A stretch of 18,617 nt of DNA from Escherichia phage YDC107_2, in sequence record CP025713.1. One strand, given 5' to 3'. Below the pieces are notes generated by a model. The model was not told the origin of the DNA. It did not search any database and was given only the letters and a program-made list of their open reading frames with translations. Shown here piece by piece: positions 1 through 14,355 of the stretch (positions are counted from its first letter, which is position 1; the number at the start of each line of letters is the position of its first letter). The position numbers and the translations under genes are program-made.

Positions 1-1737
1 GCCGAGTTGTCTGCATTTCTTGGAGAAGCTTATAACACAATCGCCACTGGTGGGCTGAATAAGCTTACTGATACCGGCATGCGAATTTCCGGCGCACGTG
101 CTAACCGTGGTAATGCATCACGACAGATACATTTCAAAGATGCAGATTCATATCTGCAATATCAGCAACTTTATGGCGATCGCTCTCTATGGGAAATCAT
201 GGTCGGTCACCTGGAAGGTATCAGTAAAGATATTGCACTGGTGGAAACATATGGCCCAAACCCCGATCATGTTTTCCGCTCTCTTCTTGATCAGGTGAAG
301 GCAGAAACGGCAACAGCTAACCCGAGTAAAACCGGTAAAGTCGAGCGGCTGGCGAACAACACAGAGAATCTGTACAACTTTATTTCCGGAAAGACACAGC
401 CTGTAGCGAATCCGCACATCGCGCGATGGTCTGACAATATCCGCAACTGGCTGGTTGCCAGCAGACTCGGATCCGCGTTGCTATCATCGTTCTCTGATCT
501 TGGAACCATGTATCTGTCTGCGAAGGTGACCAACCTTCCAATGAACCAGTTATTCCGCAACCAGCTTGAAGCTATGGACCCAACGACCGTACAGAACTTG
601 CGCGGGCGCGCCGCGCTGGTCTGGCAATGGAATCTCTACTTGGCAGCGTTAACCGCTGGGCGATGGATAATATGGGCCGTCAGTGTCTCGTTGGGCAGCA
701 ACGGCGGTAATGCGTGCCAGTGGGCTTACAGCATGGTCAGATGCGCACAAGCGCGCCTATGGCGTAACCATGATGGGAAGCCTGGGAGAAGTAGTGTCAC
801 GGACACCAGACCTTCGTAGCCTCGATGACTCTGATTTTCGTATCCTGAAAAGCAAAGGGATTACTGACACAGACTGGAGCGTATGGAAGCTGGCGCAACA
901 GGAGGACTGGGGGAACGGTAATAATACGATGCTGACACCGGAAAGCATTATGCGTATCCCTGATTCAGCAGTTAAACATCTTGGTGAGCCTGAACGCGTG
1001 AAATTTGAGGCAATGCGTAAACTGCTCGGTGCCGTAACTGAAGAAGTTGATATGGCTGTTATTACACCGGGAGCACGTGAGCAACTGATAACCGGTTCTG
1101 GTATTCAGCGTGGAACATGGAAAGGTGAATTAACGAGAAGTGTTTTCCTGTTTAAATCGTTCCCTATCTCGGTGGTTATGCGTCACTGGTCACGCGCTAT
1201 GGGTATGCCGTCTGCTGGTGGGCGTGCGGCATATATTGCGACGTTTATTGCCAGTACGACCATTCTTTGGCGCTTTGTCGCAGCAACTTAACGACCTTGC
1301 GTCTGGTCGTAATCCTCGCGAGATGACAGGAGAAGATGCTGCTAAATTTTGGCTTGGTGCTCTACTGAAAGGTGGTGGTCTTGGCCTTTACGGTGACTTT
1401 TATTGTCAGATCACACTAGGTACGGAAGCGGCGCGCTGGCGTCGATGCTTGGCCCGGTAGCTGGCCTGGTTGATGACGTAGTGAAGATAGCTCAGGGCAT
1501 ACCATTAAATGCTGTGGAAGGGAAGAACGAGCAGACTGGTGGTGATCTGGTGAAACTTGGGAAAGGGCTGATGCCAGGTGCGAATCTCTGGTACTTGAAG
1601 GCAGCTCTTGATCACATGATCTTTAACCAGATGCAGGAGTATTTTTCACCAGCTATTTGCGTAAAATGGAGCAACGTTCGAAGAAAGAGTTTAACCAGAC
1701 ATACTGGTGGCGACCTCAGGATGTCACTCCGCAATAA
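1..1737 (+). CDS. 3' portion of a large virion internal/ejection-type structural protein; gene starts upstream of the window and is split into four reading-frame segments
   Basis: Track ORFs 7..819, 683..1291, 1140..1460 and 1403..1756 overlap in successive frames; frame 1 is open from base 1. A further shift near 1640 gives a C-terminus ...YLRKMEQRSKKEFNQTYWWRPQDVTPQ ending at TAA 1735-1737. It lies immediately upstream of the tailspike, as ejection proteins do in P22-like podoviruses. The specific function is an inference. Confidence 0.45.
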
Positions 1738-1932
1738 GGAAGTGTTGTGTTTTTAATTATTTGAGTGTGATAATTTCTGGTGGGCTGTTATTTATTGACC
1801 GCTACAAATATTTTCTTAAACCCTCAGACTCAAGCTATTTGCTGGTTCATCTTTGTTGTGCAGGGAGTAGTTCTTGTTGCAAGCCTTATTGAGGGGAGGC
1901 CTCTGATTTTTACTGGGTAAATAGGTGACTAC

Positions 1933-2229
1933 ATGCAAGCTATAGGATTCATTGTTTATATCGTCGTTGGTCTTTTTCAGTTGGCAGCAATTATGGCTGG
2001 GCTTGAATCATGGTGGGGATTGCACTGGATAATTGCAGCCCCCATTGCTTTCATCGTGAGCTATATTCCATTTGTTGGAGCGATTGTTGGTATGGTTGGC
2101 GCTGTGGATGTATGGCGGTGGGAGTGGTGGCAGGCTGGCCTTCTCTTCTTTGGTGGGATAATCTTTGCTATTGTCTGCGGTGGAATGTCATCATTTTTCG
2201 AATGGCTATCATTCAGAAAAGGAACGTGA
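1933..2229 (+). CDS. small integral membrane protein (98 aa, about three hydrophobic helices); possible superinfection-exclusion or moron protein
   Basis: Intact track ORF; AGGTGA precedes the ATG at 1933; the protein is almost entirely hydrophobic (…IVYIVVGLFQLAAIMAGL…IAAPIAFIVSYIPFVGAIVGMVGAV…LLFFGGIIFAIVCGG…). It occupies the position of sieA in P22-like genomes (between ejection genes and tailspike). Confidence 0.5.
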   Translation: MQAIGFIVYIVVGLFQLAAIMAGLESWWGLHWIIAAPIAFIVSYIPFVGAIVGMVGAVDVWRWEWWQAGLLFFGGIIFAIVCGGMSSFFEWLSFRKGT

Positions 2230-2238
2230 CATGTCACA

Positions 2239-2262
2239 GGCCGCTTTCGCGGCCTTTTCTTT
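2239..2262 (+). terminator. rho-independent terminator after the membrane protein gene
   Basis: GGCCGC (2239-2244), loop TTTC, GCGGCC (2249-2254), followed by TTTTCTTT (2255-2262). Confidence 0.5.
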
Positions 2263-2361
2263 ATGTGGTTTGTTTTCGTAATTGTTCGGCACAATAGTCG
2301 AGATGTGTTTGCAGATCCTGCATAGACATCTGTGAGCTGGTGACGTAGTTAATCAGTGCAG

Positions 2362-2517
2362 TCAGTTCGGCAAGTGGCCATCGACATTAAATCCATCCTT
2401 ATCGAGATCCCGGAGTAATTTCATCAAGTGCGATCCCTCCACCAGTGACCTGACGCCTCCCGGCGTGTGAATCCTTTCGGTAAATCCGTCTTCCAGTGGA
2501 TAGTGATACTGCTGCAT
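2362..2517 (-). CDS. small ORF (51 aa as written, possibly about 86 aa if a +1 shift at the stop is an indel) divergent from the tailspike and preceded by a LexA box; candidate SOS-induced antirepressor-like or moron gene
   Basis: Hand translation of the minus strand: ATG at 2517, MQQYHYPLEDGFTERIHTPGGVRSLVEGSHLMKLLRDLDKDGFNVDGHLPN, stop 2364-2362. GGAG lies about 9 nt upstream. Below the 60-aa cutoff of the ORF track. The +1 frame continues ELTALINYVTSSQMSMQDLQTHLDYCAEQLRKQTT down to about 2260. Confidence 0.4.
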   Translation of the reverse strand: MQQYHYPLEDGFTERIHTPGGVRSLVEGSHLMKLLRDLDKDGFNVDGHLPN

Positions 2518-2536
2518 CTTATCTTCTCCATGCAAT

Positions 2537-2556
2537 AACTGTATATTTATACAGTA
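2537..2556. promoter_or_regulatory. LexA (SOS) box overlapping the putative promoter of the minus-strand small ORF
   Basis: AACTGTATATTTATACAGTA matches the E. coli LexA consensus TACTGTATATATATACAGTA at 18 of 20 positions, with a perfect CTGT-N8-ACAG core at 2539-2554. It sits 20 bp upstream of the ATG at 2517, between a TTGATA -35-like and a TATTGC -10-like hexamer on the minus strand. Confidence 0.6.
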
Positions 2557-2592
2557 TCAAATAATTTGTTTGCTATCCAGCACGTTTTGCAA

Positions 2593-2609
2593 ATTACCTG
2601 AAAGGTAAT
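2593..2609. promoter_or_regulatory. operator-like palindrome, site A (ATTACCTGAAAGGTAAT)
   Basis: Perfect 17-bp dyad of the recurring TTACCT-N3-AGGTAA motif, about 100 bp upstream of the tailspike ATG and adjacent to the LexA box. A GGTAAT half-site follows at 2652-2657. Confidence 0.5.
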
Positions 2610-2710
2610 ATCTGTTCGTATTCACACCCTTCTATCCATATGTGGTTTTCAGGTAATAGAATAACCAGATATGCGGCGCAACGGGTGCTGCGACTATCTG
2701 GAGATTTAAC

Positions 2711-5685
2711 ATGACGGTCTCAACCGAAGTTGACCACAACGAATACACAGGTAACGGCGTTACGACATCATTTCCGTATACCTTTAGGGTTTTCAAGGAA
2801 TCTGATCTGGCAGTACAGGTGGTTGACCTTGACGAAAAATATCGCTGTGCTGGCTCTTGATACTGATTACACTGTCACTGGGGCTGGTGGATATAATGGC
2901 GGTAATGTAATTCTGTCGAAGGCGTTAGCTAACGGTTATCAGATTTCTATATCACGAGAGCTACCGGTTACGCAGGAAACTGATCTGCGAAATCAGGGAA
3001 AGTTTTTCGCTGAGGTGCATGAAGACGCGTTAGATAAGCTGACGATGCTGATACAGCAAGTCCGCAGTTGGTTTAGCCTGGCGCTGCGCAAACCATCATT
3101 TGTGGCAAACTATTACGATGCTTTGAATAATTACATCCGCAATTTGCGCGATCCTTCCAAGCCTCAAGATGCAGCTACAAAGAATTATGTTGATAATATT
3201 GTTAATGTGAATATTAACAGGACATTACGGGTTCCAGATAATTTTATTGAACCACTTCCTCCAGTTCATTTACTGGAAGAAACTGTCATTGGTATCGTCA
3301 ATGGTAAACCTATAGGTGTACCTGTGCCTTCTGGCAGTGCCGCAGATGTTCTTCTGCAATTATCTAGCGCAGGAGAAGGAAAAGGTGATGCATTATTTGG
3401 TGTAAGGCAGCCATTTGCCGGGCTGTAACTATAACTCAGCATGAAAACAATGCTCTTTTCTTAAATGTAAAACAATTCGGAGCAATTGGGGATGGGAAAT
3501 ATCATCCATTATCTGAGAGGTTTTCTTCAATTTCTGAAGCAAAATCCTTATATCCTTTTGTTGACTCATTATCTCAGTCAATAGACTGGGCCGCGTGGCA
3601 AGCTGCCCTTAACACAGGAAAGGTTATTTATGGTACTGATAATGCGTATGTAATAACGGATACGTTAACACCTGTTTCTGGTGGTGGGATAATTTGTCTT
3701 GGTGTGGGCAAATGGGTCTCAGGATATACTGCAACATTTGCTCCTGATATTACCACAGGGACCACATTCCTGATGTACGGGGTAGGAAATAAAAAATATA
3801 CTGTAGATTGTGTTTCTAATATGGATGTTAGTGGTGGTGTGGTTTCTAATCCATCTTCCGAAGACCCGTATACAACAACGGCACCTGCGTCATCATATGA
3901 TTTATTGGATTTTACTAACGGTGATGCTAATGGGGCTACAAGAGCCACGCTTAAACCATTCTCTGCCGCAATATTGATGCCAGAGACAGGATGTGTTCGC
4001 CTTGAGAACTTTCGTATTGTTCCATATTTCAATGGGCTGGATGGTTATAAAGACATTGCAAATACCGGTCTTGGCGATGAGTGGGATGTAGGTATTTGGT
4101 CACGTGCGTCTTTGGCAATGAATACCGCAATTTGCAGGTGGTTGGATACTGGCGCAAGACGGCACTTTTAAAAACGAACATTCCTGTATCTGGCACGCTG
4201 GCCGCTCAGGGCGAGGATGAAAACTATTATCACTGTAGATTCCAGGGATTCAAGGGTGTTTCGATCCGCGCCCATGATGTATTCCGAATTACAGCGGTAA
4301 CGTCCAGCACTATCGAAATCCCATGGTCATCAAGCCACACCTTCGAAACGTCCGGGGTTTTAAGATCGGGAGGCAGGAATTTCACTTATTCAGGATTATC
4401 CGTATCCGGTGATAAGTTAGTATTTACTGGAGTGTCTAACGCTTCTGAGGCAACAGTAGGTTCTACTATACGGCGAAATGACATAGATAACTTTGGTATG
4501 GCGGGAACGCAATTTTTCGATTGCTACATTACCAGCCTGTATCACCACACACATCTGCTTGCCACATCGCAATACCTGTCTCAGCCATTCAGCCGGCCAT
4601 CAGAGTGTATGGAGGTTTCAGGGGAACCAGTTCGCGGTGTACAGGTACATGCAGGAACCATTCAGGGATGGGATGATGTTCTTATTCATCTACATGACTG
4701 TGGAAATATGAACTTTTACAGTACATATTTCGAAAGCCAGCAAGCATATGTAACTATAAATGGTGGTAATGCTATTGGTTATGGAGCACGTATGATAGCT
4801 TCCAGGCAATCAACAAGCTCATTACCATATGCAGCAGGGAATACTCGAGTGCTTAGAATGGTCGGGTGCTCTGAAGGCAATGGCGTTGACTGGGGTCCTG
4901 TATTTAACAACTATACAGGAGGAAGATATAATTCTGGAGACGGTGTATTTAACCCCCGCGATGCATTTATAGACCATAAATCTCTTCCTGAGCAGTCAGG
5001 AGGTGAGTCAAGACTCGTATCACAAAAAGGAAATGCCAGAGTAGTATGTGGTGTTGGTAAAACTGTACTGCTTGGACCAACGTCAGGAGATTGTAATTTA
5101 CAGAGCAATACCGGAAGTTTAAATATTAGAAGTGGGATAAGAGTAAGAATCGGTCACGCTGATGGAACAGACTGGTGGTTGGCAGATGCTAATAAAATAG
5201 CTCCTGTTGATGATAATGTTAAAGCTATTGGACAGCCATCAAACAGATGCTCTGTTATCTATGCAGGAACCGGGTCAATCAATACGTCAGATGAAACTCT
5301 TAAAACAAGATATGATATTCTTAATGCAGAGCGTAATGCCGCTATTGAAATAAAGTCAGTCATCTATAAATTTAAATTTAATGACTCAATTAATCACAAA
5401 GGAATTGAGTCGTCCAGGTATCATTTTGGCGTTGGCGCTCAAACCGTAGGGGATATTCTTAGAAAGCATGGTTTAAACCCGGAGCAATATGCTTTTTGGT
5501 GTTACGATGAATGGCCTGACGTATGGGATGAAGAGGTGATAACTGAAGAGAGCACAGATCCTGATACAGGTGAGAAAATTTATTCTCAATATAAAACAGG
5601 AGATATGATTCTTGTAAAAAAAGCAGGAGGACGCTACGGAATTCGTTATGACGAATTAGCCATGTTTATATTAATGTCAATGTAA
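2711..5685 (+). CDS. tailspike / tail fibre protein: conserved N-terminal particle-binding domain, central pectate-lyase-like beta-helix, C-terminal intramolecular chaperone (S74-like) domain; split by three frameshifts
   Basis: ATG 2711 with GGAG at 2700-2703. The N-terminus MTVSTEVDHNEYTGNGVTTSFPYTFRVFKESDLAVQVVDLDE matches from memory the N-terminal domain shared by podovirus tailspikes. Segments are frame 2 (2711-2860), frame 0 (2730..3428), frame 2 (about 3389..4171, containing NALFLNVKQFGAIGDGKYHP, pectate-lyase-like) and frame 1 (4081..5685). The C-terminus …NTSDETLKTRYDILNAERNAAIE… resembles auto-cleaving chaperone domains of endosialidase-type tailspikes. The first shift is one extra A in the A-run at 2835-2839. 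Confidence 0.7.
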
Positions 5686-5697
5686 TAATAAATGCAA

Positions 5698-5730
5698 TAA
5701 CCCGAATAAAACAGCGGGGTTATTGTTATT
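5698..5730 (+). terminator. possible weak terminator after the tailspike gene
   Basis: Imperfect stem AACCCG…CGGGGTT followed by a T-rich stretch; weak. Confidence 0.3.
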
Positions 5731-6017
5731 ATAATAATGCTCTTAACTTCTTAAATGATATTTATATGCACTTGGATTATTAAATCTATATTATGCCTGT
5801 TATTTATGTGTTCTGTTATATGTTTTGCAGGCACTGTTGGCAGCATTAAAGGAAATTGTATTTATGGCGAAATAGCTGGTATCGTGTTTTTATTGTGCGT
5901 AAAAATAACAGACTGCATATATTATTGTATAAAGTTTTGGAAATGAAAACACTCAAACTTACCGCTGTGGATATGTTTTGACCATCGCGAATTGGATTGG
6001 TAATATTGGGTAACAAA

Positions 6018-6033
6018 AAACCATAAATGGTTT
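6018..6033. promoter_or_regulatory. 16-bp perfect palindrome AAACCATAAATGGTTT upstream of the lysis cassette
   Basis: Exact dyad symmetry about 35 bp upstream of the AGGAGG for the first lysis gene; candidate regulator binding site. Function is an inference. Confidence 0.3.
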
Positions 6034-6068
6034 ATCATGCGTAATGCTTTACTGTTCAGGAGGTAGTT

Positions 6069-6495
6069 ATGCATATAAACGGTGGAAAACATGTCAGCTC
6101 AACTAACCAGTGAAACTTTAAATCAGTGGCTTAGCATGAGTTCTTTGGCGGCAGTGATAGCAGGAGTTCCTCCTGAGGTTGCTTTGGGGTCTTTGGCTGG
6201 GGCGGTGATTTTTGTTACCTCTGCGGTAGAGTATCCCATTCGTCGTCGCGTGCTCTTGTCGATGCTTAGCTTTCTCTGCGGACTTCTATTCTACAAACCA
6301 GCAGCATCAATTCTTATCGGCATAGCCAGCCTGATCCCTACAATCACACAGGATTCTTTCGAGAAAGGGATTGTTTTCTCTGCCGGTGCATTTGTGTCAG
6401 CAATCGTCGCTGTGCGAATTGGGATCTGGCTCTATCACCGTTCCGATAATCCACGCGAGTTAATTCCGGGGAGAAAAGACGATGGTAACTCATGA
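6069..6495 (+). CDS. holin-like membrane protein; start ambiguous between ATG 6069 (strong RBS, out of frame) and GTG 6082 / ATG 6091
   Basis: Track ORF 6082..6495 (137 aa) has several hydrophobic helices. AGGAGG at 6058-6063 is ideally spaced for ATG 6069, which is in another frame and gives only 14 aa; an indel in GGAAAACA (6085-6092) would fuse them into an M…M dual-start pattern typical of holin/antiholin pairs. Confidence 0.5.
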
Positions 6496-6790
6496 GCTTT
6501 TTTTGCTTACCACCAATGCGGTTATTTGCGCCGGTATAGCAGTTCGAGTTGCCACATTTCGGAGAAACGGTTCTCAACACAGGCGATGGGGTGGGTGGCT
6601 TGCTTATTTCCTGATTGTTGCTGCGGCCAGCATTCCAGTTCGTGTCGCTTATGCAATCTGGTTACGCACGCCAATGGTTGTGGATTTATCTGAGGTCATT
6701 ATCAACGCTGTCATGCTTGCTGCAGTCATTAAAACGCGCGGTAACGTAGTTCAGATTTTCAAAATAACGAGGTCTAAACATGGAGATTAA
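6482..6790 (+). CDS. second small membrane protein of the lysis cassette (holin or lysis accessory, 102 aa)
   Basis: Intact track ORF with GGAG upstream; two to three hydrophobic helices; overlaps the end of the preceding gene and the start of the endolysin. Confidence 0.45.
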
Positions 6791-7409
6791 ACAATTCCAG
6801 CGAGCTGCTGGTATCAGCGAGGAACTGGCCGCTCGCTGGTTCTCGCATATAACTTCTGCGATGAAAGAGTTTGGTATCAGCAAACCAGAAGATCAGGCAA
6901 TGTTTATTGCTCAGGTCGGGCATGAGTCTGGAGGCTTCACCCGGTTGCAGGAAAATTTCAACTACAGCGTAACCGGATTGGCTAACTTCGTTCGGGCTGG
7001 GCGTCTCACTCAGGGGCAGGCTAATGCACTTGGTCGCCGTGCTGGTGAACCACCATTGCCACTCGAGCGCCAGCGCGCGATCGCAAATCTGGTGTACAGC
7101 AAACGCATGGGGAACAATGCCCCTGGTGATGGCTGGAATTACCGTGGGCGCGGGCTTATCCAGATTACCGGTTTGAATAACTATCGTGACTGCGGAAACG
7201 GTCTGAAAGTTGACCTGCTGGAGAATCCTGAACTGCTGGCGCAGGACGAATACGCGGCTCGTAGCGCGGCGTGGTTCTTTGCCAGCAAAGGATGCATGAA
7301 GTATACCGGTGATATTGCACGTGTAACTCTGATTATCAATGGTGGCCGGAACGGCATCGACGACCGGCGCGCGCGGTACGTCACTGCCAGTAAGGTGCTG
7401 GCTATATGA
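6780..7409 (+). CDS. endolysin, glycoside hydrolase family 19 (chitinase-like) type
   Basis: 209-aa intact ORF; the motifs QVGHESGGF and [16 protein letters not shown] are characteristic of GH19 phage endolysins (from memory); GAGGT RBS; start overlaps the preceding gene. Confidence 0.75.
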
Positions 7410-7888
7410 TCTGGGCATTCGTAAAAGCATATTGGAAACAACTGATTATCGTGGTGATGCTTGCTGCTCTGTTCATCGTCGGAGTGGTTGCCTGGAATAT
7501 ACACGGCAGTCGCCAGTACGATGCCGGGTATGCGCAGGCGGAAGAAGACCGCAAAGACGAAGAAGACAAAGTTCGTCAGTACTACGAACAGGAGAAAGTG
7601 ACCAATGAACGTGAAGCGCAGCAGAGAATCGACCAGGCGCGCAATGATGCTCTTGATGCTGCCGCTCGCGCTGGCAGGTTGCAGCAACAACTCTTTGCCA
7701 TCCGTGAGCAGCTCAGGCAGTATAACGCCATTGTCGGCGCTGGGACGTCAGCCGCAGACACCGGAGTTTTGCTTGCCGACGTGCTCAGCAAATCTCTCGA
7801 GAGAAACAGACAACTGGCAGAGTATGCTGACCGGGCAGCCGAAGCCGGAAGAGTCTGCGAAAAACAGTATGACACCCTGACAAGATAG
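7406..7888 (+). CDS. Rz: Rz-like inner-membrane spanin
   Basis: 160 aa with an N-terminal transmembrane helix ([18 protein letters not shown]) and a long charged coiled-coil-like periplasmic region; the ATG overlaps the endolysin stop (ATGA). Confidence 0.6.
7605..7880 (+). CDS. Rz1: Rz1-like outer-membrane lipoprotein spanin embedded in the +1 frame of Rz
   Basis: Track ORF lies wholly inside Rz in another frame; it has a signal peptide with lipobox LALAGC followed by a Pro-rich mature region (classic embedded Rz/Rz1 architecture). Confidence 0.5.
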   Translation: MNVKRSRESTRRAMMLLMLPLALAGCSNNSLPSVSSSGSITPLSALGRQPQTPEFCLPTCSANLSRETDNWQSMLTGQPKPEESAKNSMTP

Positions 7889-8061
7889 CATGGCATTTTT
7901 CATGGTACTGATTTCCGGTGACGGTATATAAAACGGTACGGTGAAAATCATGTTGCAGGAAGTTGTTATCAGTCAATTAGTTATGGTATCCGTAAATAAT
8001 TGAGTGGGAATGATTAACAGCTAACTCATAGCAAATCATTCCTATTCAGATGCCAACTCAA

Positions 8062-8092
8062 CCCTCTGTTTTTGCAGAGGGTTTTTGTTTTT
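8062..8092 (+). terminator. rho-independent terminator ending the late/lysis transcript
   Basis: Stem CCCTCTG (8062-8068) / CAGAGGG (8075-8081), 6-nt loop, followed by TTTTTGTTTTT. Confidence 0.6.
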
Positions 8093-8147
8093 ATGTATTC
8101 ATTTCTATTCACTCTACACCATATTTTTCGGCGGTACAGGTGACGGT

Positions 8148-8164
8148 ATTACCTTAAAGGTATA
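8148..8164. promoter_or_regulatory. operator-like palindrome, site B (ATTACCTTAAAGGTATA)
   Basis: TTACCT-N3-AGGTAT, one mismatch to the motif; about 42 bp upstream of the int start and flanked by the TGACGGTAT repeats. Confidence 0.45.
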
Positions 8165-8205
8165 CTCTCATACCGTCATGAAAATGGTTTCTATACGGGT
8201 GAATT

Positions 8206-9456
8206 GTGCTTACCGATACAAAATTAAAAAACCTCAAGCCGCAGGACAAACTGTACAAGGTCTCCGATCGTGACGGGCTGTATGTAGCTGTGCTTACGTC
8301 AGGCACGGTCTCATTTCGTTATGACTACCGTATCAACGGTCGCCGCGAAACACTGGTAATCGGGCAGTATGGGCGTGACGGTATCAGCCTGGCAGAAGCG
8401 CGGGAAGAACTGATTGCTGCAAAGAAGCTGCTTAAAGCAGGCCAGTCACCGGCTGCGGCTAAACGTGACGGTATCAAAAAGATTCGTGGTGCCGAAACGT
8501 TTGCGGTACATACCGACAGTTATATGAAACACGTCATCCTGGCTGAAAGTACCCGCGCAATGAAGCAGGCAGTGATCGACCGTGACATACTTCCGGTTCT
8601 TGGCAACAAAATGATGGCTGAAATTACCACATCGATGGTTCGTGATTTGTGTGACCGGATTGTCGAACGCGGTGGCCGGGCAACAGCAGTGCAGGCCAGG
8701 GAGATCATCAGCAGCGTATACCGTCACGCCAATGACCGTGGTCATGGTTTGTTTAATCCTGCGGCTGACATTAAGCCTTCGTCTATCGCCATATTTAAAC
8801 CACGAGAGCGAACACTGACACCAGAAGAAATTGGCCTGTTCTTCCGCACGTTGGATGCCATTGGTGCTATGGGCACTATGAAAATGGCTTTAAAACTGGT
8901 GCTTATCACTATGGTTCGTAAGGGCGAATTCACCAATGCAACGTGGGATGAAATAGATTTTAAAAAATGGACATGGACAATTCCTTCAGACCGCATGAAG
9001 GGAAGCCGGGCGCATGTTATTTACCTGCCTAAACAGGCTCAGGATATATTGGTCGGGTTGCAGATGTGCGCTGGTGGAAGTGAATATCTGGTTCCTGGTC
9101 GTTACAATTTCCGGAAGCCATTATCTAATGCCGCGCTGAACTCTCTGATCGACAGAACGGTGAAAATAATAAATGAAGATGGTGAGCATATTCAGGATTT
9201 CACCGTACACGATATGCGCCGTACAGCCAGTACGTTGTTGCATGAGGCTGGTTATCCTTCAGACTGGATTGAAAAGGCTCTGGCACATGAGCAGAAAGGT
9301 GTGCGCGCCGTATATAACAAAGCGGAATACGCCAGACAGCGCGCCTACATGTTGCAGCAGTGGGCCGATATGATTGATTCCTGGATTAACGGGGAGCATA
9401 CGGATCTGATTCCGTTCTCCCCGTCGAAGTTTGAGAAGTGGATGGCGGGGGAATAA
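8206..9456 (+). CDS. int: tyrosine recombinase / phage integrase, P4-like with N-terminal arm-binding domain
   Basis: 416-aa intact ORF with GTG start. The N-terminus LTDTKLKNLKPQDKLYKVSDRDGLYVAV is typical of the arm-DNA-binding domain of P4-family integrases; the C-terminal catalytic region carries the HxxR…Y pattern (…HDMRRTASTLLHEAGY…AHEQKGVRAVYNKAEY). Confidence 0.85.
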   Translation: MLTDTKLKNLKPQDKLYKVSDRDGLYVAVLTSGTVSFRYDYRINGRRETLVIGQYGRDGISLAEAREELIAAKKLLKAGQSPAAAKRDGIKKIRGAETFAVHTDSYMKHVILAESTRAMKQAVIDRDILPVLGNKMMAEITTSMVRDLCDRIVERGGRATAVQAREIISSVYRHANDRGHGLFNPAADIKPSSIAIFKPRERTLTPEEIGLFFRTLDAIGAMGTMKMALKLVLITMVRKGEFTNATWDEIDFKKWTWTIPSDRMKGSRAHVIYLPKQAQDILVGLQMCAGGSEYLVPGRYNFRKPLSNAALNSLIDRTVKIINEDGEHIQDFTVHDMRRTASTLLHEAGYPSDWIEKALAHEQKGVRAVYNKAEYARQRAYMLQQWADMIDSWINGEHTDLIPFSPSKFEKWMAGE

Positions 9457-9459
9457 CGT

Positions 9460-9654
9460 TTAATTATTCTGCTGATTTTCTTCCATCTCGGCTTCTGCTG
9501 CCAGTGATTCAATTTTATCTGTGAATATTGCTGACAGTGTTGCAAATTCAGCATCAGTGACAGCGGGAATTGGAACAAACCTGATCCCGCTGTGTGCAAG
9601 CATGTTTGCAGTTTCAAGGCATTTCCTTAAATCTGATGGTGATGCCCTGTTCAT
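9460..9654 (-). CDS. small acidic protein (64 aa) translationally coupled to the methyltransferase; function unknown
   Basis: The ATG at 9654..9652 overlaps the methyltransferase stop (ATGA); it is in frame with track ORF 9460..9774; sequence MNRASPSDLRKCLETANMLAHSGIRFVPIPAVTDAEFATLSAIFTDKIESLAAEAEMEENQQNN. No homology recognised. Confidence 0.35.
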   Translation of the reverse strand: MNRASPSDLRKCLETANMLAHSGIRFVPIPAVTDAEFATLSAIFTDKIESLAAEAEMEENQQNN

Positions 9655-10301
9655 GCTGCACGCTCCCGCCCCTGGTTGTCTGTTGGTGACAGCGGAGCAT
9701 TGCTGAATGCATTTGTTAATCTGGCAATATCCAACGCGTATCCAGGGTGTAGTTGCACTGCCGGGTCTTCGCACTGATTACCCCAAACATCGAAACCATG
9801 AGACGACTGGCGGGCGAACAGTTCAATGCGAGAAACATCGCCTAACAATTGCACAAGTTTTTCACGAACGATATCTGGTTTTCTTGAATGCTCAAGCCGC
9901 GGTGCGGTAAATGACTGAACGATCCCTGCATTAATGCGCGTAGGTAGTTTTCCCTTTACTGCAAACAGGCAATCTTCACTATTGGCGCGAGTCATGTGAC
10001 CCATACCCATAACCAGTTTATCTGGTTGTCGACTACCACATTTTATCCACGTGAATCCCTTCATGGTCATCAGACGGAATCCCCAGGCCTCAACAACTTT
10101 TAGTGCTTCGAGTGGTTGTGTTGGCACCCACCACATGGCCAACAGACAGTTTTCATCGGCCAAATCCCACACAGGAAGGCGGCAGATATCCAGCACACTC
10201 ATAACCGGATATTTAAAACCGGCACCGCGATTACCATCTGCGGCTTTGTCCCGGTATACCCAGGGTGGATCTGCATAGATTAGTGTGTATTTCTTAGTCA
10301 T
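9651..10301 (-). CDS. DNA N6-adenine methyltransferase, MT-A70 family (orphan phage methylase)
   Basis: MTKKYTLIYADPPW… carries the DPPW catalytic motif of MT-A70 / Dam-like N6-adenine methyltransferases. The likely start is the ATG at 10301 (the track extends upstream to 10313). No restriction partner is visible. Confidence 0.7.
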   Translation of the reverse strand: MTKKYTLIYADPPWVYRDKAADGNRGAGFKYPVMSVLDICRLPVWDLADENCLLAMWWVPTQPLEALKVVEAWGFRLMTMKGFTWIKCGSRQPDKLVMGMGHMTRANSEDCLFAVKGKLPTRINAGIVQSFTAPRLEHSRKPDIVREKLVQLLGDVSRIELFARQSSHGFDVWGNQCEDPAVQLHPGYALDIARLTNAFSNAPLSPTDNQGRERAA

Positions 10302-10560
10302 AAACCACCCCACAACATCCTATGCCGCTATAGTCGCCACGGCGAAGGCCGTTACCTTTTGTGATACATTGGTCCCTGCGAACCGCGATCCTTGCACGCT
10401 CAACATCACCAGAAGCAACATCCATACACTGAAGCCAAAGGTGAGCGGCAATGCGGAACTGCCCTTTTTTCTCTCTTTCAATCGCGCGTTTTTCGATCTC
10501 TATCGCCGCAGGAGTAACGGCGACAATCTTTGACGGACTGCGCATTGAAACCTTGTTCAT
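10294..10560 (-). CDS. PerC-like transcriptional activator family protein
   Basis: …KRAIEREKKGQFRIAAHLWLQCMDVASGDVERARIAVRRDQCITKG… resembles the PerC family signature (Lys-Gly…RRAA…W…RRDQC) from memory. The start is ambiguous: ATG 10560 or GTG 10593. Confidence 0.5.
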   Translation of the reverse strand: MNKVSMRSPSKIVAVTPAAIEIEKRAIEREKKGQFRIAAHLWLQCMDVASGDVERARIAVRRDQCITKGNGLRRGDYSGIGCCGVVYD

Positions 10561-10702
10561 GTGATATTTTTCAAGTCGGCTTAACTTTCTCACTTAATCC
10601 AACCCTCTCTGAAAATTAATGCCAGCAGATAAAGCCATGCTGAAACAGAGGCCAGGAATAAGTACCATCCTGACCATTTGCTCCAGTGCCTTAGCAGCAC
10701 AC

Positions 10703-10951
10703 TCATGCCGCGTTGCTCACGGGACGATATACACGTTGCTGAACAGGAGGTTTTTTACCCTGGAACTCTGCCGGGCTTGCTGCCTGACGTTCATCAAGCC
10801 AACGCTCAACTTCATCACGGTTCCATGCGCAGCGTTTATCGGTGATATACCAGCGTTTAGGAAATTCCCCTGCGCGCTCCATACGGTCGATAGTGCTCCA
10901 TGACAGTGGAACCACCGCCAGGAGTTCCTTCTTACCTAATGCACCTTTCAT
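10703..10951 (-). CDS. AlpA-family phage transcriptional regulator / excisionase-like HTH protein
   Basis: 82 aa; LLAVVPLSWSTIDRMERAGEFPKRWYITDKRCAWNRDEVERWL matches the AlpA pattern (…LSRSTIYR…G.FPKP…AW…E.WL). Confidence 0.65.
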   Translation of the reverse strand: MKGALGKKELLAVVPLSWSTIDRMERAGEFPKRWYITDKRCAWNRDEVERWLDERQAASPAEFQGKKPPVQQRVYRPVSNAA

Positions 10952-11000
10952 AAATACCTCTCTTGGTTGCAGTGCGGCGCGCGTGGCGCCGCGGTGGTGG

Positions 11001-11942
11001 TTACATAGATGTTTCGTTTAATTCTTCCCGACGAACGCTGTAAACGTCGGTGGCTTTTGCCAGCAGTTCGTCATCATCTGAAAGTTTTTGTGCAATGTAT
11101 TTGTAAGCCTTATCCAGTTCGGAGACAGTGCTGTAATTCATCGCTGCGCTGGTAAAGGCCATCAGCATTTCTTCTGGATCACGGCTGTCCGATTTACGCG
11201 TTTGCTCATCAGGCTTTTTCGCTGGTTTAGCGTTGATCAGACTGTTCATTCCCGCAGCAGTGGTCGTTTGCGGAGTAATGTCTCGCTCAACGCGCGGTGC
11301 CGTTTCCTGTAATTCGTCTGGGGTGTAGACGCCCATGATTACGTCAGGACAGTGCAGGCGAGACCAGCGTTTTGTCGCAAGGTATGCGAGTTGTTGTTTC
11401 GGATCACTGGCCCAAAGTGTGGAGTTTCTTACCTGTGCTTGAGACAGCATTAACTCAAGCACTCGAGGTTGATCCTCGCCCTTCATGGTTGCCCATACGC
11501 GAACACCGCAGCCTTCTTCGTCTTTTAGAGTCCAGCCTGGTGCGATATATGGATTGCCGTTTTTGGATGTTTTCTCAACAAACTTACCGATCACGCGTTC
11601 CCACGGCCCGAACCACTCGTAGTTGATGCGATCTTTTGTTGGCGACATCGTTGAGATAACTGCGTTTACTAATTGGGCTTCATAACCTAGCGTGCCGTTC
11701 ACAACATGGGTTTTCTGAGCCACGGCAAACGGGTTCATTCCCCACTGCGCAGCCTGCATTGCCACGGCCATGCAATCAGCTGGTTTCCCGGCGAGGTGCG
11801 CCGGTACCGTTACGCGGCTTTGCGCCATTACCTCGGCGAATTTCATCAGTTGGTTCAAGCCGTCTGGGCTGAAAATAGTTGCAGCAGTTCCAGCGATTGC
11901 TGTGTCTACTGGTGCGTTGATGTTTGCGATGTCGTTGCTCAT
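11001..11942 (-). CDS. recT: RecT-family single-strand annealing recombinase
   Basis: About 313 aa. The ATG at 11942..11940 overlaps the exonuclease stop (ATGA). The RecT assignment rests on length and pairing with the adjacent exonuclease; the family call is from memory. Confidence 0.65.
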   Translation of the reverse strand: MSNDIANINAPVDTAIAGTAATIFSPDGLNQLMKFAEVMAQSRVTVPAHLAGKPADCMAVAMQAAQWGMNPFAVAQKTHVVNGTLGYEAQLVNAVISTMSPTKDRINYEWFGPWERVIGKFVEKTSKNGNPYIAPGWTLKDEEGCGVRVWATMKGEDQPRVLELMLSQAQVRNSTLWASDPKQQLAYLATKRWSRLHCPDVIMGVYTPDELQETAPRVERDITPQTTTAAGMNSLINAKPAKKPDEQTRKSDSRDPEEMLMAFTSAAMNYSTVSELDKAYKYIAQKLSDDDELLAKATDVYSVRREELNETSM

Positions 11943-12760
11943 ATGTACATATCCTGTTTGCGTGCCCACTCAGGGCGTTTAATGATTTCCACACCGCCCC
12001 ATTCATCATTGATGCGGCATTCGTGATAGGTATTCAGATCCCGGCGGAACAGAGCGTGCCCGGCATCGACATCCTGCGCATCCAGCTCGAACACGCGTAC
12101 CGGATACCGACCACAATCAATGCTTTCGCTCACGGCAAGAAAGAAAAAACCATGCGGCTGACCAGTAACCCTCATTGCGCCTTCGCGGTACATTGCGTCC
12201 TGCACGTGGTAGCGGAATTCCTCGATGTGGCGTGCAAAACGGTCCATATCTGCAACCTTTTTCACGTCGACGATCACGTTGTGCTCGTTCAGCCATTTGT
12301 CTGGACGAATTCGGCACAACTCCCCCGTCTCTTCATCGTTCCAGTACATTGATGCTTCGCAGTAACCAGGTGCTTCCAGCATCCAGCGTGCCGCCGGGTG
12401 AGCCATTGCGCTATCACGCATCAGCTCCAGTTTCCGCCACTGCTCGGCATCAAGTACCGTAATCCCCATATCCGCCACATCACGAAGAAATTCCTCTTCG
12501 TCAGCTTTACCTTGTTTCGTCCGACGATCGAATTTCGGTGAAACAATGAAGCGTTTGTCGAACTCTCCAGGCTCCAGAAGCAGACAGTGCAATGCGGTTC
12601 CCATATCCAGTGCAGACTTTTTCTCTTCGTCTTCTGGTGCTGCCTGAACCCATTTAAGAAGCGCCGGATTCTTGGCAACCATGTCCAGTTGCGACTTACT
12701 CACGCCGTCACCGGCGTGGTAGTCTTCGTTGCTGATGTCGAAATAAATTCCCGGTTTCAT
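11939..12760 (-). CDS. RecE-like PD-(D/E)XK 5'-3' exonuclease, partner of RecT
   Basis: 273-aa intact ORF beginning MKPGIYFDISNEDYHAGDGVSKSQLD…, with …RIRPDKWLNEHNVIVDVKKV… consistent with a PD-(D/E)XK nuclease core; translationally coupled to the flanking genes. Confidence 0.6.
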   Translation of the reverse strand: MKPGIYFDISNEDYHAGDGVSKSQLDMVAKNPALLKWVQAAPEDEEKKSALDMGTALHCLLLEPGEFDKRFIVSPKFDRRTKQGKADEEEFLRDVADMGITVLDAEQWRKLELMRDSAMAHPAARWMLEAPGYCEASMYWNDEETGELCRIRPDKWLNEHNVIVDVKKVADMDRFARHIEEFRYHVQDAMYREGAMRVTGQPHGFFFLAVSESIDCGRYPVRVFELDAQDVDAGHALFRRDLNTYHECRINDEWGGVEIIKRPEWARKQDMYI

Positions 12761-13020
12761 GCCGCGTCCCTCTGCCCATCAAGCTGATCAGCCAGATCCC
12801 AGCGGGCGATAATTGCCATTGCCTCGCGCCGGTAGGCATCCATTAGTTCTTCGAACTCAGGGCTGTCTTTAGCGGCCTCCAGTACTTCCTGGCGAACGCC
12901 TTTAACTGTTACAACGTCGAAAGTTGATGCCAGTTGATGAAGCCGGATACTCTCAATCAGTTCAACTTGTCGGTCATATAGCTGTTCTGACAGACGGTAG
13001 TCCTTGTCGAATGCCAGCAT
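12757..13020 (-). CDS. hypothetical early protein (87 aa, helical), first long gene of the leftward early operon
   Basis: Intact track ORF whose stop overlaps the exonuclease start; no motif recognised. Lambda places gam/kil-type genes in this position. Confidence 0.45.
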   Translation of the reverse strand: MLAFDKDYRLSEQLYDRQVELIESIRLHQLASTFDVVTVKGVRQEVLEAAKDSPEFEELMDAYRREAMAIIARWDLADQLDGQRDAA

Positions 13021-13057
13021 GATTTTTGAAGATTTTTCTGCTGATTAACGTTCATTA

Positions 13058-13210
13058 TCAGCCCTCCCATATCTCGTTATCGTTGGCCACATCGCGAGCT
13101 TCTTTGCTGACGAAAGCCCACTTAATGCCTTCCTGTAAGGTGCGGAACTTCCAGCTCATGAATCCGCATGCAGTAACGCAGTACCAACCGTTGATGATTT
13201 TCCACTGCAT
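13058..13210 (-). CDS. small hypothetical protein (50 aa) immediately downstream of the early-left promoter
   Basis: Hand translation MQWKIINGWYCVTACGFMSWKFRTLQEGIKWAFVSKEARDVANDNEIWEG; GAGGT lies 9 nt upstream of the ATG at 13210; below the track cutoff. Confidence 0.35.
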   Translation of the reverse strand: MQWKIINGWYCVTACGFMSWKFRTLQEGIKWAFVSKEARDVANDNEIWEG

Positions 13211-13228
13211 AACTTGTTACCTCGGTCT

Positions 13229-13245
13229 GTTACCGTTGAGGTAAT
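13229..13245. promoter_or_regulatory. operator-like palindrome, site C (GTTACCGTTGAGGTAAT) at the early-left promoter
   Basis: TTACCG-N3-AGGTAA, directly abutting the -10-like element; an extra TTACC half-site lies at 13217-13221. Confidence 0.5.
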
Positions 13246-13272
13246 AATTATGCGTATATGGTTTGATGTCAA
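13246..13272 (-). promoter_or_regulatory. candidate early-left (pL-like) sigma-70 promoter
   Basis: On the minus strand a perfect TTGACA -35 (13272..13267) is followed 15-17 nt later by a CATAATT -10-like element (about 13252..13246), bracketed by operator sites D and C. Confidence 0.4.
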
Positions 13273-13290
13273 TAGATATGAGTTAAAAAA

Positions 13291-13307
13291 ATTACCCGTT
13301 AGGTAAT
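13291..13307. promoter_or_regulatory. operator-like palindrome, site D (ATTACCCGTTAGGTAAT)
   Basis: TTACCC-N3-AGGTAA, between the repressor terminator and the -35 of the early-left promoter. Confidence 0.5.
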
Positions 13308-13316
13308 CGAATAGGC

Positions 13317-13340
13317 AATAAAAAGCCGCCATAAGGCGGC
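13317..13340 (-). terminator. rho-independent terminator of the repressor gene
   Basis: GCCGCC (13325-13330), loop ATAA, GGCGGC (13335-13340); on the minus strand the stem is followed by TTTTTATT (complement of 13317-13324). Confidence 0.5.
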
Positions 13341-13362
13341 TTACTTACTGAAAAATATGGTT

Positions 13363-13948: not shown

Positions 13949-14002
13949 TTTCTGGAAAATCGCCTCATATCTGAATCAGAAGATGATTCAATTTAAAGCA
14001 AT

Positions 14003-14019
14003 ATTACCCAACAGGTAAA
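14003..14019. promoter_or_regulatory. operator-like palindrome, site E (ATTACCCAACAGGTAAA) in the repressor/cro intergenic region
   Basis: TTACCC-N3-AGGTAA; a degenerate copy GCACCTCATGGGTAAC follows at 14021-14036. Confidence 0.5.
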
Positions 14020-14050
14020 TGCACCTCATGGGTAACTATCCTTGATTTTT

Positions 14051-14067
14051 GTTACCTTATAGGTGAA
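14051..14067. promoter_or_regulatory. operator-like palindrome, site F (GTTACCTTATAGGTGAA)
   Basis: TTACCT-N3-AGGTGA, one mismatch; about 35 bp upstream of the Cro-like ATG; a TTGATT -35-like hexamer lies at 14042-14047. Confidence 0.45.
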
Positions 14068-14333: not shown

Positions 14334-14355
14334 TATCCAGCTACAACCCTCTGTA

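Follow-up and report, generated by a model that had tools for sequence, protein, structure and literature searches.

The DNA analyzed here, an 18,617-nt stretch (hereafter called the window; 47.27% GC), matches the PacBio contig "YDC107_phage2" (CP025713; PMC6035167) in both of these values, and it carries on its plus strand a tailspike gene preceded by a ribosome-binding site (Table 1). This region encodes the sole tailspike, or receptor-binding protein (RBP), of a temperate podovirus (~38 kb) that resembles epsilon15/phiV10 and resides in E. coli YDC107. In the YDC107 prophage, the genes upstream of the tailspike encode a T7-gp14-family core protein and three large internal proteins, and those downstream encode two holins, a GH19 endolysin, and a DUF2514 protein. 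The tailspike gene thus follows the genes for internal/ejection proteins and precedes the lysis cassette, as an RBP gene does in Uetakevirus. The phage also carries an integrase and an attP sequence (positions 7999–8015) that recurs in attL and attR on either side of the YDC107 prophage between guaA and yfgI, and the window captures the phage in its excised, circular form. A scan for promoters and terminators around the tailspike gene yielded nothing above shuffled background, and a 63-aa ORF downstream of the gene (5755–5946) has no PHROG match.

Table 1. Features of the tailspike gene, with positions numbered along the window.
Feature	Position	Strand	Residues	Details and basis
Ribosome-binding site and start	2700–2713	+		GGAG 2700–2703, ATG 2711–2713; read from the letters; same start as the RefSeq CDS of the YDC107 locus (8114–11089)
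Tailspike gene	2711–5685	+		Stop TAA 5683–5685; read from the sequence
Module 1, virion anchor	2711–3377	+	1 to ~222	Epsilon15/phiV10 (Uetakevirus) type; sequence and structure matches
Frameshift 1	2835–2839	+		A5 versus A4 in reference, one base extra; alignment to two reference loci including YDC107
Module junction	3378–3424	+	224–235	Conserved KGDAL(F/I)GVRQPF; where three anchor types join a common cassette
Frameshift 2	3420–3422	+		G3 versus G4 in reference, one base short; alignment
Module 2, right-handed parallel beta-helix	3425–4989	+	~239–760	Receptor-binding, putative depolymerase
GAIGDG cap motif	3479–3496	+	257–262
Family-conserved residue	4085–4087	+	D459
Frameshift 3	4111–4113	+		T3 versus T4 in reference, one base short; alignment
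Family-conserved residue	4267–4269	+	R520
Family-conserved residue	4276–4278	+	D523
Family-conserved residue	4543–4545	+	H612
Family-conserved residue	4612–4614	+	E635
Family-conserved residue	4633–4635	+	R642
Family-conserved residue	4732–4734	+	E675
Stalk before cleavage site	4990–5289	+	761–860	Ends at nucleophile Ser860 (5287–5289); Pfam, structural alignments, pLDDT
SDETLK motif	5287–5304	+	860–865	Catalytic Lys865 at 5302–5304
Module 3, intramolecular chaperone (Peptidase_S74)	5290–5685	+	861–991 plus stop	15.2 kDa; PF13884, dyad, Foldseek

The original prediction had placed a modular tailspike at positions 2711 through 5685. A gene does lie at these coordinates, but three ±1 homopolymer frameshifts interrupt it and hence it does not form a single ORF; the ORF listing instead splits the region into ORFs at 2730–3428, 3704–4171, and 4081–5685, with three frame jumps between the start and stop codons. 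As the reference for these frameshifts, we used the intact 2976-nt gene in the chromosome of E. coli YDC107 (locus coordinates 8114–11089; WP_105955783.1). When the three bases were mended, the window yielded a protein of 991 aa (computed mass of 108 kDa) that has zero internal stops and whose sole difference from WP_105955783.1 is F229I.

Because the window equals a PacBio contig in length and GC and indels are present throughout it, we read the three frameshifts as PacBio homopolymer assembly errors. Alignment with the chromosomal YDC107 prophage revealed 14 one-base indels and 1 substitution in window positions 1–8015 and 30 one-base indels without any substitution in positions 7999–18617, for a total of 44 one-base indels and 1 substitution, and some of the indels are intergenic. 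The window as given, with three frameshifts inside the tailspike gene, might be taken to mean that the frameshifts are genuine and that a defective phage carries this gene as a decaying pseudogene. However, we consider this extremely improbable, given that every frameshift is a ±1 change within a homopolymer run, that the chromosome of the same strain holds an intact gene, and that the excess of indels over substitutions includes intergenic DNA. Moreover, the contig is a PacBio by-product that stems from phage excision and has not been polished, its attP junction shows that the phage excises, and many 991-aa copies of the protein are present in public data, several of them on dozens to more than 100 contigs. 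A true pseudogene and a programmed frameshift were both ruled out by the ±1 homopolymer indels, which occur window-wide and are absent from the YDC107 chromosome. The biological tailspike gene is intact, and RefSeq already annotates the intact version. This case serves as a reminder that, in long-read assemblies, what looks like a pseudogene on a side-contig can be due to error alone.

The repaired protein matches phrog_1171 ("tail spike protein") along its full length and begins, as had been predicted, with a particle-binding module that is widely shared among podoviruses. Residues 1–129 match the virion-bound Carin-1 tail-fiber anchor (8ck1/28lx; E = 2.7e-25), and Foldseek matches for the anchor include 8ck1_B (44% identity) and the 9efk and 8vbx tail complexes. 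The AF2 model depicts the anchor as a beta-sandwich (aa 1–88, with pLDDT >90 across aa 10–88), a helix (aa 100–126), and a low-confidence linker extending to aa ~210. At the DNA level, the first ~600 nt of our query (111 nt of upstream sequence plus ~160 codons) have matches in 545 of the 5426 E. coli genomes, whereas the remainder of the gene does not. The same ~600 nt match epsilon15-like phages as well as phiV10, TL-2011b, and PAS61, the last three with 84–89% DNA identity over the anchor part only (for query positions 1–595, 83.9% to phiV10 and 89% to PAS61). Uetakevirus RBPs are recognized by N-terminal homology to the phiV10 RBP, whose anchor spans its first ~205 aa (PMC10408124), and the YDC107 tailspike carries such an anchor. 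Several alignments converge on the junction that follows: DNA identity to a P22-like version of the tailspike begins at window position ~3380, with the proteins identical from K224; the alignment with the protein of phage YZ1 begins at aa 217; and aa 221–274 also match the neck of the Sf6 tailspike.

The predicted structure of the second module is a right-handed parallel beta-helix, and the GAIGDG-type signature that had been claimed for it is present in the cap. The description of this core as pectate-lyase-like stood with regard to the fold when the structure prediction check was run, but the gathering score of PF12708 (Pect-lyase_RHGA_epim) was not reached; neither the full protein nor any window piece matched this profile at E <= 0.1. 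PF12708 was found in 16 of 50 homologues of the central domain (best E = 2.4e-18), which suggests a tie to the YDC107 tailspike that is transitive only, and a direct Pfam call of the center as Pectate_lyase_3/PF12708 was set aside, as the match is to relatives only. Because PF12708 is absent here and occurs in only 16 of the 50 relatives, we take "pectate-lyase-like" to denote the fold and not the chemistry. Among 50 relatives with 27–69% identity, three residues (D459, R520, and E675) never vary and four others (D523, H612, E635, and R642) are at least 90% conserved, a pattern that is typical of an active site and makes these residues catalytic candidates.

Beyond the beta-helix is a stalk with lower pLDDT values (62–75), as would be plausible if this segment folds only within a trimer. 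Its C-terminal end (aa 825–859) is matched by Pfam End_tail_spike, and the stalk aligns with the pre-cleavage stalks of endoNF (3gw6), T5 pb1 (4uw8), and 7y5s. The proposal that the C terminus is an intramolecular chaperone was borne out by a Peptidase_S74 match at threshold, a Ser860/Lys865 dyad, and a match in fold. The score for PF13884 is borderline but reaches the cutoff of 22 bits (23.1 bits with window piece 4114–5682 and 22.0 bits with the full protein), and 24 of the 50 central-domain relatives also match this profile (best E = 4.5e-16). An S-D-x-x-x-K dyad (S860-DETL-K865) is located at the start of the domain, where S860 lines up with the Ala introduced into the endoNF S911A (3gw6) and T5 pb1 (4uw8) constructs, and K865 with their Lys. 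Foldseek returned a probability of 1.0 for 3gw6, 4uw8, and 3gud (TM to target of 0.73–0.75 for 3gud), and the domain, which occupies the extreme C-terminal position after the stalk, is modeled with pLDDT values of 83–97 across aa 870–991.

The cassette comprising the center and the chaperone is found on three different anchors (epsilon15-like, P22 head-binding, and T7-type), in agreement with the expectation that the central domain is the exchangeable part that bears specificity. The T7-type example is the YZ1 tailspike (Kayfunavirus; AUX83623.1, MG845865 32085–35003), which exhibits 72% aa identity over aa 217–991 and 78% over the central domain. It has the same beta-helix and S74 chaperone, a corresponding junction motif (KGDSL/KGDAL), the candidate catalytic residues, and SDE-LK. 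However, YZ1 is a lytic T7-like phage, the N terminus of its protein is formed by Phage_T7_tail (PF03906) and Tail_spike_N (PF18668), and its chaperone does not include a stretch of ~24 residues. A megablast search of complete E. coli genomes gave no copy of the YZ1-type variant with which the capsule association described below could have been replicated. The P22-like (Lederbergvirus-type) version is represented by the prophage tailspike WP_110221334.1 of E. coli CH10508 (argW/intS) along with 901-aa relatives. From K224 to the C terminus, its DNA is ~98% identical and its protein nearly identical, but it starts with the Head_binding domain of P22 (PF09008; 113 aa, E = 3.5e-66), and its phage backbone and integration site are different.

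Other known tailspikes share individual parts with the YDC107 protein. Its C-terminal chaperone aligns with that of the endosialidases of K1F and CUS-3 (3gw6; E = 9e-14) with a conserved dyad and a matching fold, and these proteins exemplify the logic of a capsule-specific spike with S74-assisted trimer folding and Ser-Lys cleavage. CUS-3 is a P22-like temperate phage with a capsule-specific tailspike. The endosialidase catalytic domain is a beta-propeller sialidase, whereas the YDC107 tailspike has a predicted beta-helix and would act on another substrate. Epsilon15 and phiV10 have the same anchor (across the first ~480 nt of the YDC107 gene, the DNA is 84% identical to phiV10) and the same type of upstream podovirus tail genes, and as temperate podoviruses they likewise rely on a single RBP (PMC10408124). 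However, their receptor-binding parts are unrelated at the DNA level, with no similarity past ~600 nt of the query, and their targets are O-antigens (O157 for the phiV10 tailspike and Salmonella group E1 for that of epsilon15). Among solved structures, the beta-helix cap is closest in sequence to the Pseudomonas phage proteins LKA1 gp49, an O-specific polysaccharide lyase, and phi297 (4ru4, 4ru5), with 12–21% identity outside the cap. LKA1 gp49 differs in having a beta-barrel insertion, a discoidin-like C-terminal domain rather than an S74 chaperone, and the Pseudomonas O5 O-antigen as its substrate, and its proposed Asp/His/His active site (PMC5701251) was not found conserved in the YDC107 tailspike.

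We then consider the receptor, which the original prediction had given as O-antigen or capsule; the data favor capsule and disfavor O-antigen. Among 5426 E. coli genomes, 15 carry the tailspike. The capsule region 2 gene krkA of YDC107 is present in 65 of the 5426 genomes overall and in 11 of the 15 carriers (Fisher p = 4e-19, or 2e-10 after collapsing related isolates, with genomes that are not phylogenetically independent). The krkA-positive carriers span both anchor architectures and both krkA alleles (100% and 97%), and krkA is present in three of the four complete genomes with the P22-like version (CH10508, CS5L, and UPEC_U013; 23CRST013 is negative). Conversely, only 11 of the 65 krkA-positive genomes have the tailspike. 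The protein WP_001336789.1, which is carried by NCTC9022, has been shown to be the K13 polymerase KrkA (PMC12887879), and the YDC107 copy is 95.7% identical to it over 1114 aa. The K13, K20, and K23 group-2 capsules have the backbone ->3)-beta-D-Ribf-(1->7)-beta-D-Kdop-(2-> (PMC12887879). The O-acetyltransferase of YDC107 shares only 36% identity with its counterpart in the K13 strain, so that the krkA match places YDC107 in the K13/K20/K23 family as a whole. A K100 capsule (ribosyl-ribitol-phosphate), known from ST131, had been considered owing to the HAD-domain polymerase. This candidate was rejected on finding that region 2 is without CDP-ribitol genes and that the polymerase is 95.7% identical to K13 KrkA. 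The most likely substrate is the KrkA-built K13/K20/K23 group-2 capsule, for which the tailspike would be a putative depolymerase, and 11 of the 15 carriers are hosts predicted from krkA to make this capsule, with four exceptions.

Prophage RBPs of Uetakevirus and Lederbergvirus usually track the host serogroup (PMC10408124), so that the default reading is an O-antigen-specific tailspike that recognizes and cleaves the O-polysaccharide of the lysogen, as in epsilon15, phiV10, P22, and HK620. The nearest solved relatives of the cap, LKA1 gp49 and phi297, are likewise O-antigen enzymes, and YDC107 itself is O102:H6 with an intact rfb cluster. Nevertheless, we consider an O-antigen receptor distinctly unlikely because the carriers of a gene with at least 98.8% identity are O102 (YDC107), O1 (EC21Z-151), and O6 (DLL7555), such that near-identical tailspikes reside in hosts with differing O-antigen gene clusters. 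In addition, no other carrier was found among 60 listed of 107 O102 genomes. Pas et al. counted the YZ1 subtype, to which this tailspike is related, with the RBPs that are not tied to serogroup; they noted YZ1-related prophage RBPs in strains of O102, O6, O1, and O153 and suggested a K-antigen receptor (PMC10408124). A specifically O102-directed tailspike was dropped after the O1 and O6 rfb clusters were read in other carriers. The rfb clusters of HS4 and SBF22, both rearranged genomes, were not located by synteny.

The association with krkA could also be indirect, reflecting some other co-occurring glycan or structure or the joint travel of prophage and kps within lineages. Four carriers are krkA-negative (LS45, XH992, OZ547246, and 23CRST013), several carriers have identical kps-flanking genes that point to relatedness, and clinical clones are over-sampled in collections of complete genomes. 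Even so, we judge an indirect link to be unlikely: the carriers include three sequence types (ST964, ST2003, and ST73), three O-types, and two krkA alleles, the tailspike is borne by two unrelated phage backbones at two integration sites (guaA and argW), and the enrichment holds after harsh collapsing of related isolates. Furthermore, LS45, whose region 2 differs, and XH992 retain YDC107-type kps regions 1 and flanks with region 2 alone replaced, as would result if the capsule had switched once the prophage was in place, and recurrent kps exchange has been documented (PMC13171606). The beta-helix could in principle be a non-catalytic, polysaccharide-binding adhesin or have some other activity (lyase or epimerase) instead of that of a hydrolase. 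This is very unlikely in our estimation, as seven residues display active-site-like conservation in 50 relatives, YZ1 keeps all the carboxylates, and the Ribf-Kdo backbone, judging from its chemistry, does not have the 4-linked uronic acid needed by classical beta-elimination.

The gene, its three modules, and their exchange between phages were observed directly, as was the statistical link to krkA, and from sequence and models we infer trimerization, self-cleavage, enzymatic activity, bond specificity, and mechanism as follows. The N-terminal ~220 residues would fix a homotrimer to the tail, whereas the central beta-helix would bind and most probably cleave the host surface polysaccharide, allowing the phage to reach the outer membrane. 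The S74 domain would promote trimer folding of the stalk and then remove itself through a cut catalyzed by Ser860/Lys865 at the predicted scissile bond between S860 and D861 (predicted products of 92.9 and 15.2 kDa), leaving a 93-kDa mature spike. As 4-linked uronic acid is absent from a Ribf-Kdo backbone, pectate-lyase-type beta-elimination would be less likely than hydrolysis by a glycoside hydrolase whose conserved carboxylates (D459, D523, E635, and E675 are candidates) act in catalysis. The depolymerase would most likely be an endo-glycosidase acting at the beta-Kdo ketosidic (or beta-ribofuranosidic) linkage.

Taken as a whole, the reading of this locus as a three-part tailspike gene that is broken in this contig by sequencing errors only and encodes a probable K13-family capsule depolymerase is one in which we have reasonable, although far from complete, confidence. 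Tailspikes built of modules, in which the beta-helix can be exchanged and the chaperone cleaves itself off, belong to textbook phage biology; the new part is the receptor assignment. To our knowledge, such activity on Kdo capsules was described biochemically for coliphages in the 1980s–90s but was never assigned to a gene, and our literature search found no sequence-defined phage depolymerase gene for E. coli K13/K20/K23. We tentatively suggest, at slightly less than even confidence, that the cassette comprising aa ~224–991 might be the first sequence-defined depolymerase for the K13/K20/K23 Ribf-Kdo capsule. This cassette has moved among three unrelated phage chassis (epsilon15-like, P22-like, and T7-like).

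The receptor assignment links an easily expressed protein to the KrkA-type capsule, and K13_K23 is among the K-types most strongly tied to invasive disease (kTYPr paper, PMC13171606). If confirmed, the protein could serve as a K-typing reagent or as a capsule-stripping anti-virulence enzyme, and its specificity module could be grafted onto three phage or tailocin anchors. More broadly, prophage RBPs of genera regarded as O-antigen-specific can instead follow the K-antigen, which matters for genome-based prediction of host range.

The original prediction placed a three-module tailspike gene at window positions 2711–5685. The gene is indeed present there, but three sequencing errors break it, and no single open reading frame in the window spans it (the open reading frames listed are 2730–3428, 3704–4171, and 4081–5685). 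Three-frame translation instead reveals one protein whose frame is switched three times. A megablast search of 5426 complete E. coli genomes recovered the full stretch from 11 chromosomes at 98.8–99.8% identity, wherein the matching span is 3205 bases versus 3201 in the window and the gene is an intact 2976-nt coding sequence annotated as 'tail fiber domain-containing protein'. Base-by-base alignment with the chromosome assigned every length difference in the tailspike stretch to a homopolymer run, and the non-coding DNA flanking the gene contributes three more one-base indels. Correcting the three coding bases yields a 991-residue protein without internal stops that matches the intact tailspike of the E. 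coli YDC107 chromosome (WP_105955783.1) except for F229I.

Features of the tailspike region and phage junction (window coordinates)
Feature	Position	Strand	Detail
Tailspike gene	2711–5685	+	GGAG 2700–2703; ATG 2711; TAA 5683–5685
Frameshift 1	2835–2839		A5 in window, A4 in chromosome
Frameshift 2	3420–3422		G3 in window, G4 in chromosome
Frameshift 3	4111–4113		T3 in window, T4 in chromosome
ORF just upstream of tailspike	1933–2229	+	98 aa
Small gene upstream of tailspike	~2261–2517	−	interrupted by indel at 2375
Tailspike–holin spacer	5686–6081		~400 bp, AT-rich, GC ~0.36
Unannotated ORF in spacer	5755–5946		63 aa
attP junction	7999–8015		17-bp core ATTGAGTGGGAATGATT

These errors are not confined to the tailspike. 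Relative to the chromosome of the same strain, the window carries 44 one-base indels and 1 substitution, with 14 indels and the substitution in positions 1–8015 and 30 indels and no substitutions in positions 7999–18617, which align with the opposite end of the same YDC107 prophage. The indels (for example, at 585, 673, 1266, 2375, and across 13022–18326) are denser in the early-gene half than in the tail/lysis half (2.8 versus 1.7 per kb), fall mostly in homopolymer runs, and affect genes and spacers alike, which is why many other genes look fragmented in the list of open reading frames. This pattern, with its 44:1 ratio, is characteristic of unpolished long-read sequence and not of gene decay. 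The two halves, which are ~38 kb apart in the YDC107 chromosome, are joined in the window from prophage lysis end to integrase end through a core of which attL, at the 3′ end of guaA, and attR, adjoining yfgI, each hold a copy. The window therefore represents the excised, circular phage. The YDC107 genome paper (PMC6035167) lists the PacBio contig 'YDC107_phage2' (CP025713, 18,617 bp, GC 47.27%; the window has the same length and GC content) and states that phage regions were excised and assembled independently of the chromosome.

The query begins 111 nt upstream of the gene, and its widely shared part ends after ~600 nt, at about codon 160. This part matches 545 of the 5426 E. coli genomes by megablast and shares 76–89% DNA identity with phiV10, TL-2011b, PAS61, epsilon15-like Salmonella phages, and Enterobacter phage Tyrion. 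Past this point, no DNA similarity to these phages was found. Residues 1–129 resemble the N-terminal, virion-bound part of the Carin-1 tail fibre (8ck1/28lx, E = 2.7e-25), and AlphaFold2 models the anchor as a confident β-sandwich (residues 10–88) followed by a long helix, for which Foldseek returned 8ck1_B (44% identity) and the fibre anchors of the LME-1 and PhiM1 tail complexes. No Pfam model detects this anchor, and PHROG 1171 ('tail spike protein') spans the whole protein. The upstream genes specify three large proteins and a core protein of the T7-gp14 family; downstream come the genes for two holins, a GH19 endolysin, and a DUF2514 protein. Such a neighbourhood is in keeping with a temperate podovirus of the epsilon15/phiV10 type that has one receptor-binding protein.

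The open reading frame at 1933–2229, just before the tailspike, encodes a 98-residue protein that matches, along its whole length, phrog_3075, a group of unknown function (E = 1.6e-54); the protein is WP_001147904.1, hypothetical in RefSeq, and its gene is a conserved neighbour of the spike in YDC107 and HS4. The 63-residue open reading frame in the tailspike–holin spacer had no match in a PHROG search. In some Uetake- and Lederbergviruses, a gene for O-antigen modification occupies this position (PMC10408124); the spacer here has none.

The central domain was predicted to be a pectate-lyase-like β-helix, and this fold is confirmed by the AlphaFold2 model (80-sequence alignment; mean pLDDT 84.6, mostly >90 over residues 250–760) and by structure matches. 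The structures listed for the β-helix are the phage 'pectin lyase' 7chu (25.7), AlgE4 epimerase (24.5), Fri1 gp49 (24.1), the phi297 tailspike (22.8), and polygalacturonase 1bhe (22.3), along with Depo32, CBA120 TSP1 and TSP2, and the RbmB lyase. LKA1 gp49 and phi297 rank highest in Foldseek, but their sequence likeness is limited to a cap (residues 251–313) with the GAIGDG motif, and most other phage matches share only this same short cap. An exhaustive HMMER search with residues 238–823 recovered 1251 cluster representatives at E ≤ 1e-3 (150 at E ≤ 1e-30); in these proteins of 650–1000 residues, the position of the domain varies. Among 50 relatives, 16 carry PF12708 (RHGA/epimerase, pectate-lyase-like), which Pfam does not match in the tailspike itself, and 24 carry Peptidase_S74; the N-terminal domains among the 50 are of the T7-tail, head-binding, TSP1/gp66, or tail-collar kinds. 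Lyase, hydrolase, and epimerase are not separable by the modelled fold alone. D459, G479, R520, and E675 are invariant in these relatives (27–69% identity) and R435, Y446, D523, H612, E635, and R642 are at least 90% conserved, making these residues candidates for the active site.

The C-terminus likewise supports the three-module reading. Pfam places the C-terminal end of End_tail_spike at residues 825–859, directly before Peptidase_S74 at residues 860–922 (23.1 bits versus a cut-off of 22). The last 170 residues align with 7y5s (6e-23), endoNF 3gw6 (9e-14), T5 pb1 4uw8 (1e-11), 6eu4, and GA-1 3gud, wherein S860 pairs with the Ala that the crystal constructs, which do not cleave, have at this position, and K865 pairs with their Lys, and the chaperone fold agrees (Foldseek probability 1.0). 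The model for the cleavage site is endoNF, reportedly described by Schulz and colleagues in 2010. By this analogy, the protein would cleave itself between S860 and D861, with predicted products of 92.9 kDa, the mature spike, and 15.2 kDa, the fragment split off.

Four further E. coli chromosomes match only positions 781–3130 of the query (~98%). The CH10508 copy sits in a P22-like prophage (Arc, lytic transglycosylase, intS/argW) whose 901-residue tailspike has a Head_binding domain (PF09008) as its N-terminus, unrelated to that of YDC107, whereas the two proteins are near-identical from K224 ('KGDAL(I/F)GVRQPF') onward. The closest phage relative, the fibre of the lytic Kayfunavirus YZ1, carries the same cassette (72% identity over residues 217–991) behind T7-tail and Tail_spike_N domains. 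Thus, one receptor-binding-plus-chaperone cassette occurs on three different anchors. The best 120 matches in a large protein database are all at least 99% identical in the centre, and most have 991 or ~901 residues. Several genomes match the query at two places (SBF22, NZ_CP067235.1; OZ547246; 702/18; DLL7555; CH10508); SBF22 holds both the 991-residue epsilon15-type and the 901-residue P22-type versions, and hence two different prophages of the same specificity in one host.

We propose, as a testable hypothesis, that the tailspike receptor is a K13-family capsule. YDC107 is O102:H6 (ST964) with an rfb cluster annotated O102, the carrier EC21Z-151 (ST2003) has O1-family wzx and wzy, and the carrier DLL7555 (ST73) has O6-family wzx and wzy. 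Receptor-binding proteins of YZ1-related prophages occur in O102, O6, O1, and O153 strains, for which a shared K-antigen has been suggested (Pas et al., PMC10408124), a proposal that the present analysis put to the test. The YDC107 group-2 kps locus, at the end of the pheV island, has a region 2 (locus L013, 33734–38138) comprising a CatB-like O-acetyltransferase and a 1114-residue 'HAD family hydrolase', an arrangement identical in EC21Z-151. This region 2 occurs in only 65 of the 5426 genomes (all 65 were enumerated) and in 11 of the 15 tailspike carriers against a chance expectation of 0.18 (Fisher p = 4e-19, or 2e-10 once related isolates are collapsed). Nine carriers have the YDC107-type allele (YDC107, SBF22, HS4, E22, EC21Z-151, EC21Z-144, 702/18, CH10508, and CS5L) and two a 97%-identical allele (DLL7555 and UPEC_U013). 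Clonal hitch-hiking in any simple form is an unlikely source of this association, since the positive carriers represent three O-types, at least three STs, two integration sites, and both anchor architectures. In HS4 and SBF22, the locus examined ~500–520 kb from the guaA prophage is ompA–hya–tor, not his–rfb, a sign that, compared with YDC107, EC21Z-151, and K-12, the chromosome has been rearranged on a large scale.

The 97% allele is that of the K13 strain NCTC9022, whose region 2 (locus L015, 3045–7345) holds WP_001336789.1. This protein is the characterised KrkA, sole polymerase of →3)-β-D-Ribf-(1→7)-β-D-Kdop-(2→, a backbone common to K13, K20, and K23, the three types being distinguished by O-acetylation alone (PMC12887879). 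YDC107 KrkA is 95.7% identical to it over all 1114 residues; the Kdo-transferase module accounts for only 3 of the 48 substitutions and the last ~125 residues for 31, packed at 1030–1110. In contrast, the O-acetyltransferases of the two strains share only 36% identity. These sequences point to the shared backbone in YDC107 as well, probably acetylated in another pattern, and the capsule may be an unnamed acetylation variant of the K13/K20/K23 family. The YDC107-type allele is the commoner one (50 of the 65 genomes at ≥99%).

β-Elimination is the mechanism of pectate, K5, and LKA1 lyases. It would not be expected here because the Ribf–Kdo backbone lacks a 4-linked uronic acid, and we infer that the tailspike would more plausibly act as a hydrolase, on either the ketosidic bond of Kdo or the ribofuranosidic bond. 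Coliphage glycanases that cleave β-Kdo linkages were reported in the 1980s–90s.

Four of the 15 carriers (LS45, XH992, OZ547246, and 23CRST013) lack krkA. LS45 region 2 (locus L017, 9461–19632) differs completely from that of YDC107 and contains glf, ugd, two GT2 genes, an acyltransferase, and two hypothetical genes, and its region-1 proteins and flanking island genes have the same accessions as those of YDC107; XH992 shares the island with LS45. This pattern would fit replacement of region 2, a capsule switch, after lysogeny, and in LS45 the switch looks recent. Exchange of kps loci is reported to be recurrent (PMC13171606). The added value of the analysis is a specific and testable proposal for the receptor of this tailspike, the K13-family capsule.
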